A stretch of DNA of 64,000 nucleotides from NCBI RefSeq assembly GCF_002571385.2, contig NW_019218214.1, positions 159,203-223,202 of the forward strand, read 5' to 3'. A program made the position numbers and the translations under genes. Every line of letters begins with the position of its first letter. Positions within the stretch are counted from its first letter, which is position 1. The notes under the pieces are model-generated. The model was given only the letters and a program-made list of their open reading frames with translations. It was not told where the DNA came from and ran no database searches. Positions 95 to 18,540 of the stretch are shown here, one piece after another. This DNA comes from Stylophora pistillata (taxonomy: Eukaryota).

Positions 95-3000
95 CTTTGA
101 GAGGACTGACTTGTCTTTCATCACGTACTCATAAGTAGTAAGTACAACATTGAACTTTCCTCCTCTGATTTGAGATGCAGCTGAACGGCGCATGTTGGGT
201 GAACCCTGCAAGAAAACAGTAGCTGATTGATTAGCCACCTGGCACACTCAGGTTGAAGACCGCTGGACTGTCATGCAGGAGTTTGTGGGTTCAAGCCCCA
301 AACTGGACCAACAGTTGGTTAACCAGATGTTTTTGAGAAATCTAGTCTCACCTTGTAGCTTACGACAATAATTGAAGGTGTCCATTTCTCAAATTCCAAC
401 AACCAGTTTGAGAGTGTCCTGTAGAATGCATATGTATACAACAACAGAGATCAGTAAAAATAATACAAAACAAAAACACTTTTCAAGATTCTGCAGCAAA
501 CTGTACTTACGAGAGAGGAACAATGACAAGGAAAGGTCCATTGAGCTTTTTTACTTCAATTAGGTAAGCAAACAAAGCAATGGTCTGAATAGTCTTTCCA
601 AGACCCATCTCATCAGCAAGGATGCCATTCAAAGCATTATTGTGCAATGAGACCAGCCATTCAAGACCTCGCATCTGAAAAGAAGGCAACATTTACAAAA
701 ATCAAATTAGGCCACAACAATTAACTAAAATTTTTTTTTCTTGCAATCAAAGTAGAGCAGTGACACTATAATATCTGAACTCCATCAAATACCATGTACA
801 CACATATATATCACATACATGAATATTTACTTGCATGTTAGGAGTATGTTACATTTTAATCATTTGGAAATCACCAATTTGCTCAGCCCCACTAGCCTGT
901 GTGCTGTAAACACCACTGAGGGTAGGCAGTAATTTTTATATTTCTTTTACGATATTAAGATTAAGATAAACACTAAGTTCTCAGAGCCAACACTTAAGTA
1001 AAAATGCATGTTGAATTCGATAAAGAATTTGACTGTAGTCTAAATGAATATGTATATATATCTATATATATCTATATATATATTTAGTACAATTTCAGAG
1101 CTGAGCAAAGAGTTTCCAGCAATCTGATTGATCGAGCAGTTCCTTATATGATGCTATATAAACCGCTCCACGTGGTTTATATAAAATGTTACAATAAAAC
1201 GTTAATAAATGTTACTAAAATGTTATGATTTTAGAAATTTCTCTGTTGTTCAGCTCTGAAATTATACTAAAACAATTATTTGCCTCAGGTTCGGTGAATA
1301 TTGTTGAATAATCCCCTCAACTTCATCTCGGGCATTACGCGACGATATTCACCTCACCTTCGGCGAATAGTTGTTAAATATGAAAAACACAAAAAGCTTT
1401 AAAACATTGTTTCATGTTGTTGGATTATTTTTATTAAAAAAAACATACCTGATATTCTTTAAGTTTTCCACCAATTAGAATAGTTGGCTGTTCAGTGATG
1501 TCCTCCTGAAAGCTATGTGCAATTCGATAATACTGACGACTTTCCAGAACAGTTGGATCATCAGCTCTGAAAGCAACAGAACTCTGAAGTTAAGGGTGAT
1601 GATGAACTTTGATGATGAACTTTATTCATGTGTCAATTATAAAATAGCAGTAATAAAACCACTAAGTAAGGACACAACAAGATAATATAGATGAAATAAT
1701 AAATAACTAAATATTAATATATGATTAAATAGCATAAAATATACGAATAAATAGCATAAAATTTGTAATTTGTCGTCAGCAGAATTAGGCTAGGGAAAAT
1801 TGGGGGGGGGATAGTCTGAGCCTAAATAAGATATAACTAAGAATCATGCACTGCAAAGACGTGGGGGGGGGGAATAGTCTGAGCCTAATTAAGATATAAC
1901 TAAGAATCAGGCACAGGGTACAGGTGTTACAAAATACAATTCTCATTTTGGAAGAGTCACCTTGAACAGCACTGACATCAAAAGTGCCAGCTGCTTACTG
2001 GTATCATCGTTATGTACATTGTCGACTGACTTTGCAAAGATGTTACCACTTTGAATGCCTCAAAAGTTTTGACTAAATTCATAAAGATCCATGTAAAATT
2101 TGGTAACAAATTTGGCAACAGATTAAGTTATGATCTATGGTCACACTTCAAGGACAAAAGACCAAGACAACATTATCTTTAAGTAAAAAAATTTACAGTG
2201 AAGTGCATAGAGGCAATCAGTCTATCACTACTCTTATCAGAACCCTGCGTTTAGTACTCACTCTTCCTCAACATCTTCTTCATCCTTGCCATACTCTTCT
2301 CTCTTCTTTTCTTTCTCAGTTTTCTTTTCATCAGCTTCTTTATCAGCCTCTTCATCACCTTCTGCATCTTCAACTGATCCTTCTTCTTCTTCTTCATCAT
2401 CAGATTCCTGTTCTTGACGAGGTGCCACCTGATATCTAGTAAACAAATGTAGAGAAAGTTGATGGAGATTTAAAATTCTTTAGAATCAGATAGAGTGTCA
2501 ACATCTAATATCTCTCCCATAACTTCATGCTTTCCTTCTTTGGGAAAAGAAGATACCTGTGTCGTTCTTTGTTTGGAGGGCACTTTACACTGTAGACAGA
2601 ATTTTGGAACACCTGTTTCAACAATACTTGTAATTTTGGCCATAGGTGTTTAAGCATCTCAGTTCATCCACTTCCCCTTTCTTTCCCTACATTATGTTGC
2701 ACTTCCACAATCAATACAAAAGATACTCGTCAAGGGGGGTCAGGATTTTTAAGCTGTAGAACTACTTGTAAAAATAAAAAGCTTTTGAATATTCCAAGCA
2801 CCCACTTCCCACTTCTGCTGTATGCAAATTAAAATACTTCCATTACAGAGTGTTGATTAAGCAGTATTTAGTAGAGAATAACCTCTTGTCCCTTTGTCGT
2901 ATTTTACAGCCACTAGATTTAAAATGAAAACCTTGCATACCCTGGATGACTTTCCAGCCATGAGTCTAGATTGTCAGCAATGGGGGCATCATCACCTTTA

Positions 3001-6000
3001 AGCACCATACCAGTCTCTGTGTCAACCACTGGCACATGCCTGTTACCCTCCGGTGTCTCGTCATCATCATAGTCAGACTTTCTCCTTTTCCTGTTTTCCT
3101 TCATTTGTTTCTTTCTTTGTTCTCTCTTGTGTTGTTGTACCATCTTTGTAAGACTGGCCACATACTCATCAGTCTGTCCCAGGAGGTATGCCAAACGTTT
3201 GTCTTTCTTCTGGTCAATCAGTTTTCTGTAGCCTTCTTCATCTTCAGCCTGTAGTCACAACAAAATAAGATGTACTCTGTACATTATCTATTATATGATG
3301 AGCTGAATTATGTATACATTGTGATTGGTTGTTTACTTAGGATAAAATGGAGGACAGATGCATAGATAATGTTGTCATTGATACATTTTTGTGTCTTTAA
3401 TATGAAAACCAGACAGATTCTGTGTTTCTGTGCATCTGTTCAGTAACAGATCAAAGATGAGGTTGAAATCTGATGGGAACAAGAGTAGCACACTCAGTTG
3501 CACCTTGCACACCACTTTTTTGTTCTTATCACATTTTGATGTCATCGCTTAAATATTACTGACCAAGCATACAGCAACATGGAATCTATATATTACTATA
3601 AGCACAACCATGTCAATAAAACAGTAAAAATAACTTTTTACCAAGTTTGCCACTGAATATGAAAAAAGAATTGTTTAATAACTTTGGCAATTCAATCTAG
3701 TTTGAAATGAGTTCAATTTAAAATTCCACTTAAACTACCCCATCTATACCAGACTCATTATGTCATGTTTCAAATCAAACATTACATAATTCATGCTACA
3801 AAATGTGCTGTGATGCTGGCATCTAAAACAGACCACAAAAAAACATACCATAAGCCTTCTCATTCTCTCTTTCTCAATTCTCTCCTCCTCCTTCTTCTTC
3901 TCTCTGTCTGTAATGGAGTGATAGCTCATCACAGCTCTATTAAGCTTCACCACCTTGGACTGGATGGAACGATGATATTCTCTGAAATCACGAGCATGCT
4001 GCAATATTGTGTTGAGGTACTCCTGATGTTTCTGTCTACGTTTGCGTTCTTGTTCCATCTTCTGCTGCTTTTCAAGTTTCTCTGTAATCCTGAAGGACAA
4101 GAAGTTTCAAAATATGGTTTTATCACGGGGAAAAATATGCACTTCCTTAACAGAAACTAATAAAGACTGATTGTAGACACCACAATAGAGCATTATTCTG
4201 AGTTTTTACAAGTAATAATTATTGATTCAGCAAAGTCAGTCTTGTGTTATCTAAACTCAACATGAACAATTCAGTATGGAAATCTTTTAACTGCTTGAAG
4301 TAAGTTTACAAACATCTCTTTCACAATGCCTCCAATTCATAATTTTAAGTCTTTATGTACATACATGTCCTCCTGTCATACTTGTACTTCTGATCATTCA
4401 GTACTTACATTTCCTATGTTATTTCCTGTCACTTTAGAGAATACCACAACATCAATAAAAATTTCTGCTTTAGAGCATACCTTGCTTCACGCAGGGACTG
4501 CTTCTTGCTTCGTTTGTATGCCTTTGAATTAAGAGCTGTCTCCAGTGTAGTGTCTCTTCTTGTGCAGGCCACAACTTCTGCTCTTAACTAATCACAAAAA
4601 GAATATATTGATTCACTAAAACCTTCTGTTAAACCTTTACAATCCAAGAGTCTTGATTGTAGTTTCTTTTTATAGTATTACCAATAAATCAAACATTAAA
4701 AATAAAGGAAATGATTCAAGTCTAGAGAAACAGTGGTCGCCATCTTCACGTGTTGTAGCTAGTAGCTATTAGAAACGCTAAAAAGCAACACTTTCCTCCA
4801 CAAAACATTACAATACTCTCGTAAACAAACCTGTTTCTGGAAGTTAAGCAGCCTGAGTGCTCTTAATTCAATCATGGCTTTCATTCGTAGATCATCAGGA
4901 ATACTCCCTGGAAGACCTTCCAGATCTCTGATACGCTGTACAATACGGGCCTGGATTCTGAACAAATAATGCAAGGAGGAAGCACAAAGAAACAATATTG
5001 TGGGTGACACTTCAGTAAAGTAAAAACAACTTACACTGCACAAGCTAGCTGTACCAGAGTTACAATGCATGTTAAAAATGTGAATGAAAATTCAAATTAT
5101 TGTGGTCAGTATAATGGTGGCAAAAGAATGTTAATTTTCAAATCCACTCTCAATAAGTGACTAGTAAGGTTACACAAATTTACACAGCTATAAGGAATAA
5201 CCCTGATAAAAAATACAAAGTTCTCTGAGAGACAATTACTTCCAAAAAAAATATATGCTGGAGAACTACTAATCAAATCTCGTAAAAGTTTATACAAACA
5301 ACACATTTATACATATCCAGTGTACCTCTCCATGTCACTGATATGAAAATCTACGATAAATATTACATGTACAAATTATGTAAGTTAAAAAAAATTCCAG
5401 AAAAAGATTTTTTATAAAAAAAAAGGCTTGAAACTATTATCAGTATCATTATTTACTCACTGGGTTTTCTTATGAGTTTCGAGGAAAAGGGTGTAGCTTA
5501 ATGTAAGTAGAAACTATTTTGGATATATCAACAAAGTTGAAGTGGTAAATTGGCCACCGTAACAATTACAAAAGCTGACGTTTCAAGCGTTAGCCCTTTG
5601 TCGGAGCGAAAGACGAAGGGCTCCGATGAAGGACTAACGCTCGAAACGTCAGATGAAGGGCTAACACTCGAAACGTCAGCTTTTGTAATCGTTATGGTGG
5701 CCAATTTACCACTTCAACTTTGTTGATATATCCAAATTATTTCGTTACTCCCACCGACGCAGCCCCAAACAGTTTCTTTCGAAACTATCAGCCTTTATTC
5801 ATAAGTAGAAATTAGACTGTTGTCAATGTTGTGTTGCCAATCAAATTTTTCATCTGACAGAACATCCCAGCCAAGGGAGAGTCAATGCCTTGATTAGGTG
5901 GCAGAACCCTCTGATGGCTTCATGTGTAACTCCACATTAGTTAATACAAGAGCTGGGAGTAGTCATACCTGTTTTCTCTTTCTTTCAGAATAGTAACAGG

Positions 6001-18231: not shown

Positions 18232-18540
18232 TATCTTATTAACCAAGCGCGAGGGCCGTACAGAGAATATCGGCCCGAGGTCTTGACAGTACGGACCGAG
18301 CGCAGCGAGGTCCGTACAAAAAAGACCGAGGGCCGATATTCTTCCAGTACGGTCCCGAGCAAGCTTGGTTAATAAGAGATTTATTATACGACTGAAGTTC
18401 AAAGGGACACAAGTGCGGTATCATTCGGGACAATTCGGGACAGTGCCCGGTCCAATACTAAGAGAATATTGACCGACAATAGAGCATTTTGATTGGTTGA
18501 TTTTAGTTATTGGCCATCTGACTGCCCGAGTCGTGTAATA
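18232..18540. mobile_element. double-foldback element
   Basis: GC-rich hairpin 18234-18377 with a 15-bp perfect base, plus a segment bounded by TATTATACGACT / AGTCGTGTAATA; TGATTGG near the distal end. Confidence 0.75.

Follow-up and report, generated by a model that had tools for sequence, protein, structure and literature searches.

Hairpin-ended CryptonA repeats of Stylophora pistillata with an internal mirror of their joined ends, and a possible folded-circle route of transposition

CryptonA elements have been described as carrying one DUF3504 tyrosine-recombinase gene in about 2 kb, as making no target site duplication (TSD) and as being greatly outnumbered by their short deletion derivatives (Kojima and Jurka 2011, PMC3212892). 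In the portions of the cited papers that were consulted, to which all our statements on published work refer, terminal repeats of animal Cryptons were not found and are listed as n.d. (PMC3212892), and later papers mention short direct repeats or variable repeats (PMC8969392, PMC13465315). A 2026 review describes the Crypton mechanism as being without experimental demonstration and the standing model as one that assumes a double-stranded circle (PMC13565253). Here we describe four repeat elements, E1 to E4, in a 64,000-nucleotide stretch of Stylophora pistillata DNA (contig NW_019218214.1 of assembly GCF_002571385.2, positions 159,203 to 223,202; hereafter the window). Together with the long copies found for E1, E3 and E4, they agree with CryptonA in gene content, size and lack of TSDs, and in the excess of short copies over long ones. 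Unlike published CryptonA, they have a terminal hairpin, an inverted repeat (IR) between an internal and a terminal position, an internal mirror of the joined ends that is 2 nt short, and a two-armed target.

A recombinase site made by folding is found in CTXphi, whose single-stranded genome folds two inverted parts into attP; CTXphi uses host XerC/D and the fixed dif site, unlike the elements here. Integron recombination of attC with attI has been demonstrated to use a folded single strand and one exchange, the second strand exchange being abortive and replication resolving the product (Loot et al. 2012, PMC3458562), and our proposal shares this scheme. The attC site folds within itself, whereas the site here would form from the joined ends and an internal copy; the enzyme model is nearer to Cre than to IntI, the targets are dispersed and degenerate, and the system is not an integron. 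DIRS elements likewise have an internal stretch complementary to both ends, a tyrosine recombinase and no TSD (PMC8969392). Unlike DIRS, the elements here show no reverse transcriptase and no long inverted terminal repeats, and their mirror adjoins a terminal hairpin with DNA-type GNA loops. Non-autonomous CryptonA families are already known: the short Eulor5/Eulor6 and salmon Crypton-N1/CryptonA-N2 are similar mainly at their termini, and in the portions consulted no fold or junction layout is given for them, so they were compared by description only (Kojima 2018, PMC5753468). Our elements are members of the known CryptonA family, E2 being a likely one, and it is their end structure and likely mechanism that were not found in print within the literature searched; Repbase Reports, Dfam and Kojima's 2019 review were outside that search and may describe the layout.

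Layout of the elements and their recombinase-bearing relatives

Self-alignment of the window showed an imperfect terminal hairpin (A-A') of 105 to 170 bp in three of the elements, each adjoining a short IR (B/B') of 12 to 31 nt. E1 (1084-1377, minus strand, 294 bp) has its far end at the left and its hairpin, with 69-70% identity between the arms, at the right (1271-1375); its IR is 31 nt long and 90% identical (1083-1112/1241-1271). E3 (6526-6968, plus strand, about 443 bp) combines a hairpin at 6528-6696 (76%) with a perfect 14-nt IR (6704-6717/6952-6965), and E4 (18229-18541, plus strand, 313 bp) a hairpin at 18234-18377 (77%) with a 12-nt IR (92%; 18382-18393/18529-18540). E2 (3292-3596, minus strand) is an old copy, 78% identical to its family majority sequence, and is decayed in the window; the majority sequence, about 300 bp long, has the same layout, with a hairpin of 187 nt (88%) and a perfect 12-nt IR. 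On the plus strand the order is B...B'-A-A' in E1 and E2, and reversed in E3 and E4. An earlier note on this DNA, made from the sequence alone, had proposed this architecture for all four elements and had called E2 decayed. Both statements were borne out, the element limits being moved by a few bases. Four nucleotides of the far end of the E3 window copy appear to be gone; this copy is nested within another repeat, copies of which exist without the insertion, and E1 adjoins a (TA)n tract. An automated test for the layout detected E1 and E3 and missed E4 and E2, and its shuffled control gave 0 palindromes in 158 windows of 1.5 kb.

No DNA similarity among E1-E4 was found at E<=0.05 in the self-alignment, as the earlier note had held; the enzymes of their long relatives are homologous, with about 26-32% identity, and at that level the families are related after all. 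The hairpin and the IR travel together in full-length copies of E1, E3 and E4. A TGATTG/CCAATCA motif, also pointed out before, lies 27-45 nt inward of the far end in all four elements. It is represented on the plus strand by a CCAAT-type motif with one change in the E1 window copy (1125-1131), by three CCAATCA motifs in E3 (6835-6941, beginning at 6835, 6848 and 6935) and by TGATTGG in E4 (18490-18496). Since these motifs are located 5' of the recombinase start in the long copies of E1, E3 and E4, the motif is likely a promoter of the recombinase gene.

All four elements represent dispersed, high-copy families in the 398-Mb assembly. A first look gave 1831, 248, 895 and 1776 genome candidates for E1, E2, E3 and E4, respectively, 40 of which were scored per family, and exact end motifs occurred 544 times for E1, 117 times for E3 and 955 times for E4. 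The E4 family is young, with copies 97-98% identical to the window copy. In one sequencing run the read depth was about 4,800 over E1 and 1-4 over single-copy flank, a ratio in keeping with low thousands of copies. Assembly gaps very often begin exactly at the ends of young E1 and E4 copies, and could perhaps conceal tandem arrays.

The PF12012 (DUF3504) profile gave 91 matches across the genome, and long copies of 1.9-2.4 kb were found in which the two ends of E1, E3 or E4 surround a DUF3504 gene. The E3 long copies (L113, L114 and L126; about 1.93 kb) are 83-95% identical to E3 over both ends, their gene being flanked by the first ~290 and the last ~130 bases of E3. Those of E1 (L170, L226/L230, L291 and L292) are 88-93% identical at the ends; all but L170 are broken, and the L170 gene apparently contains introns. 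Both ends are also present in the E4 long copies L384 (2.4 kb; 95% at both ends), L387 and L389. Because the ends are shared with these gene-bearing copies, E1, E3 and E4 are, judged by sequence, internal deletion derivatives of CryptonA that are non-autonomous and have kept both ends. For E2, no end was found flanking a gene among 120 overlapping recombinase loci; its layout and junction resemble those of E1 and L182, and its E1-like junction and hairpin tip make it a likely CryptonA.

The partner proteins of E1, E3 and E4 matched PF12012 at or above the cut-off, together with PF25561/PF00589, and gave no GCR1_C match; a DUF3504 tyrosine recombinase is the sole kind of domain that the partners encode. 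The catalytic R, K, H, R, H and Y columns are conserved in 70-71 of 71 aligned proteins, and the R-H-R-Y set is intact in the E1 partner L170. Named relatives of the recombinases are from Pocillopora, Porites, Acropora and other anthozoans. The predicted structure of a close homologue (mean predicted local distance difference test score 76) matched QRICH1 and Cre best, with XerA and IntI weaker; Cre ranked 2 and IntI 37. The gene runs from the far end toward the hairpin in the long copies of all three families. In L141, L142, L148 and L158 it points away from the hairpin, opposite to most families.

From the 91 matches, 60 loci were taken with wide flanks, and a hairpin with an abutting IR was found around the gene in 13 of them, one being doubtful, as compared with 1/36 and 0/40 control placements; a protein search added two further recombinase loci with the layout. 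The layout is therefore a property of many CryptonA elements in this genome, in about 11 families by eye. The earlier expectation of a coherent non-autonomous class moved by a tyrosine recombinase, and of long copies with the same termini that encode it, thus agrees with what was found for E1, E3 and E4. The suggestion that the class is possibly unclassified does not, since three of the four families derive by deletion from DUF3504 elements.

End junction, insertion sites and hairpin strand

Natural head-to-tail arrays expose the joined ends of E1 (C443 and C165), E4 (C730) and E3 (L197, twice). In all three families, taking the reverse complement of the internal A'B junction and adding exactly 2 nt gives this end-to-end junction. 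The internal junction of E1 (1263-1277, minus strand) is 2 nt shorter than the junction in its tandem arrays, that of E3 (6691-6707, plus strand) is likewise exceeded by 2 nt in L197, and in E4 (18374-18389, plus strand) the arms are 5 nt apart, versus 7 nt at the tandem end junction. When natural tandem DNA of E1 and E4 was folded, the end junction paired with A'B and left the same 2-nt excess, with z values of -11.7 to -16.1. The internal junction had previously been taken for a mirror of the joined ends; it is complementary to both ends, and is not an exact mirror.

In order to describe the insertion sites, 30 copies per family of E1, E3 and E4 were chosen by an exact far-end motif and used in genome order, because a sample of the best-scoring copies might over-represent those with the spacer. 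No TSD was found: overlaps between the two ends were no longer than in shuffled pairings, and empty paralogous sites showed no duplication, in line with the earlier failure to see any. Such empty counterparts in other repeats were obtained when the ends were trimmed, untrimmed ends giving none, for E4 (L069 and L351), E1 (L376) and E3 (L008, L015, L020, L299, L304, L312, L316, L317 and L321); a few further rows were left out as too diverged or as self-matches. At the close counterparts the flanks rejoin without duplication and without loss. The target carries T at -3 (0.74-0.91) and A at +9 (29/29, 20/28 and 17/25), and the bases at -2 and +8 are complementary. It is a degenerate palindrome, with two weak arms flanking a 6-bp spacer, that is opened at one edge. 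Part of the E1 signal is supplied by (TA)n tracts, and T at +8 remains without them. Conservation of the hairpin-side flank alone was considered and dropped when the second arm was found at +7 to +9.

The element's own 7-nt spacer was present at the hairpin end in 67 of the 72 copies in which that end was found (E3 21/23, E4 25/26, E1 21/23). After the far end it was seen in 4 of 86 (E3 0/29, E4 0/28, E1 4/29), and in each of these four cases another hairpin end follows, the spacer being the beginning of a second E1 or of a distinct repeat whose opening bases are identical. In L362, L374 and L375, E1 is fused directly to a different common repeat that starts with E1's hairpin-end bases, probably another Crypton family sharing the spacer. 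From the mixed arrays seen, we suggest that a tandem forms when an element inserts at the hairpin end of a resident copy, and not by rolling-circle copying. E3 has repeatedly inserted in the hairpin and body of the recombinase-bearing L184/L188-type family (L304, L312, L316, L321, L015 and L144), and Cryptons appear to be good targets for one another.

On the strand that begins with the hairpin, each of the four family majority sequences has a C-GNA-G tip. DNA stems are stabilised by tandem GA pairs, and a tandem G·A mismatch lies two or three pairs under this tip on the same strand in all four families. Over 19 hairpins, the hairpin-first strand has 29 GA/GA versus 2 TC/TC tandems, and 110 purine-purine versus 23 pyrimidine-pyrimidine mismatches. 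GNA triloops have been reported as the only ones to form a very stable DNA mini-hairpin (PMC13037366). The hairpin-first strand would be the one exchanged, because its cut at the spacer edge would yield the observed products; this assignment relies on standard tyrosine-recombinase geometry (see also PMC3458562). Among five E4-like sequences, 13 of 60 hairpin pairs changed on both sides, for which arm-to-arm conversion could be an alternative source.

A folded circle and its alternatives

We propose that CryptonA derivatives probably move as a folded single-stranded circle whose joined ends are paired with the A'B mirror, that one strand is exchanged, and that replication resolves the product. 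One strand of a resident copy would fold, with A paired to A' and B to B'; acting in trans, the DUF3504 recombinase would cut it and then join B' to A. The circle is predicted to fold to a dumbbell, with a junction in which 7 nt of one strand face 5 nt of the other. Judging from the insertion sites, this junction would pair with a double-stranded target, in which two short A/T arms flank a 6-bp spacer, and the junction strand alone would be exchanged, at the spacer edge, with no need for spacer homology. As in integrons, replication would then resolve the junction and give a duplication-free insertion, in every case with the spacer of the element on the side of the hairpin. That animal CryptonA elements in general transpose in this manner, as folded single-stranded circles through a 7-over-5 site, with a Cre-like enzyme and a one-strand exchange into a 6-bp-spacer target, we hold to be slightly better than an even chance.

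The published Crypton proposal of a double-stranded circle (PMC13565253, PMC3212892) would also yield TSD-free, one-sided insertions with the same elements and enzyme, provided that one strand is productively exchanged before replication; the internal junction and the hairpin would then be an accessory site or a cruciform. Bacterial SE elements, in which tyrosine recombinases circularise one strand (PMC9345347), also speak for it. It leaves unexplained why three families of unlike sequence each have an internal complement of both ends that is 2 nt short, and why the GNA/GA signature is on one strand, and we consider it rather unlikely. A more restricted role for the fold, in which it would only bring the ends together on a lagging-strand template for excision or prime the second strand of the circle, an ordinary duplex being integrated, seems to us quite improbable. 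In its favour, primase sites in the origins of single-stranded phages and plasmids are marked by mini-hairpins (PMC13037366), and excision would require the conserved arm of the target that remains at the hairpin end. However, if a duplex made two exchanges over an unmatched spacer, the element's spacer would be expected at either end, and in solo copies it is never found after the far end; the 7-over-5 spacer, moreover, averages to the 6-bp spacer of the target.

It is very improbable that the families are DIRS-type retro-derivatives, HUH/Helentron derivatives or ordinary MITEs (miniature inverted-repeat transposable elements) with independent hairpin and IR modules. What defines DIRS elements is an internal region with complementarity to both ends, and hairpins with asymmetric IRs occur in Helentron-type elements (PMC8969392); a partner was found for all families but E2. 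For E1, E3 and E4 this reading, including the HUH and DIRS options raised in the earlier note, is largely refuted. Their long copies of 1.9-2.4 kb carry a DUF3504 gene, and no reverse transcriptase, RNase H or Rep Pfam match was found in the six partner frames scanned. The elements have neither the TSD nor the terminal IR of a MITE, their IR joining an internal position to a terminal one, and hairpin and IR co-occur in full-length copies.

Several observations weigh against the folded single-stranded circle. A double-stranded circle with a single exchange would give one-sided products as well. The rule of two extra nucleotides was measured in only three families (E1, E3 and E4), and by eye in long copies of other families it fits five and leaves two ambiguous; E1 and E4 differ in the strand that the folding energy of the whole junction favours. 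The 19 hairpins come from about 11 related families and are thus not independent. A TNC tip is carried on the hairpin-first strand by L148, L156 and L158, and the tip of L182 is symmetric, with arm-to-arm conversion or loop flipping as a possible origin; one family has no purine bias, and counts of G·T versus A·C show no strand bias. In the layout test, 47 of the 60 recombinase loci failed, including two known E3 long copies, and of the 14 long copies listed, only 7 have the CCAAT motif close to the far end. In the E3 partner L113 the second catalytic R is replaced by Q, the long copies examined carry broken or altered frames, and no intact active element was identified among them. A circle, single- or double-stranded, was not observed, the end-joining joint being absent among the joints listed. 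These joints came from reads and contigs over window positions 600-19000 and one young E1 copy, and included no empty allele either; a further 544 and 76 joints, the majority, stood outside those listed and one flank is repetitive, so that this result is no evidence either way.

Genomic setting and implications

E1, E2 and E3 lie within introns of a minus-strand gene at about 380-8300, whose exons encode QLQ and HSA domains and which we take to be a SMARCA2/4-type remodeller. Further host genes in the window are a prolyl 4-hydroxylase N-terminal exon (10115-10618), an intronless cytochrome P450 (26260-27792), a LicD-family gene (31729-32646), an otopetrin (38877-40775) and an LDL-receptor-like gene (53000-62300). 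An abundant repeat with back-to-back arms, presumably Penelope-like, occurs at 5512-5742, 10582-10684, 13425-13673, 19740-19900, 23380-23560 and 26090-26230; the E4 copy L069 lies inside a repeat of this type, with a clean empty site. Long near-perfect IRs of other elements, with arms 96-100% identical and without an abutting second IR, are located at 28334-29010, 52465-52790 and 59840-60003. Large tandem arrays with 4/8-bp and 86-bp units, together with N stretches, occupy 42000-46600.

With the exact ends, the junction, the target rule and a predicted active strand in hand, the Crypton mechanism can be tested using one enzyme and short oligonucleotides. The layout also offers a structural signature by which many gene-less hairpin repeats of animal genomes could be classified. 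The recombinase is compact, and may be able to insert single-stranded DNA with no homology and no duplication of the target. If the proposal is true, integron cassette recombination would have a eukaryotic counterpart in these elements, and the mechanism would be that of the lineage that gave rise to ZMYM2/3/4 and QRICH1.

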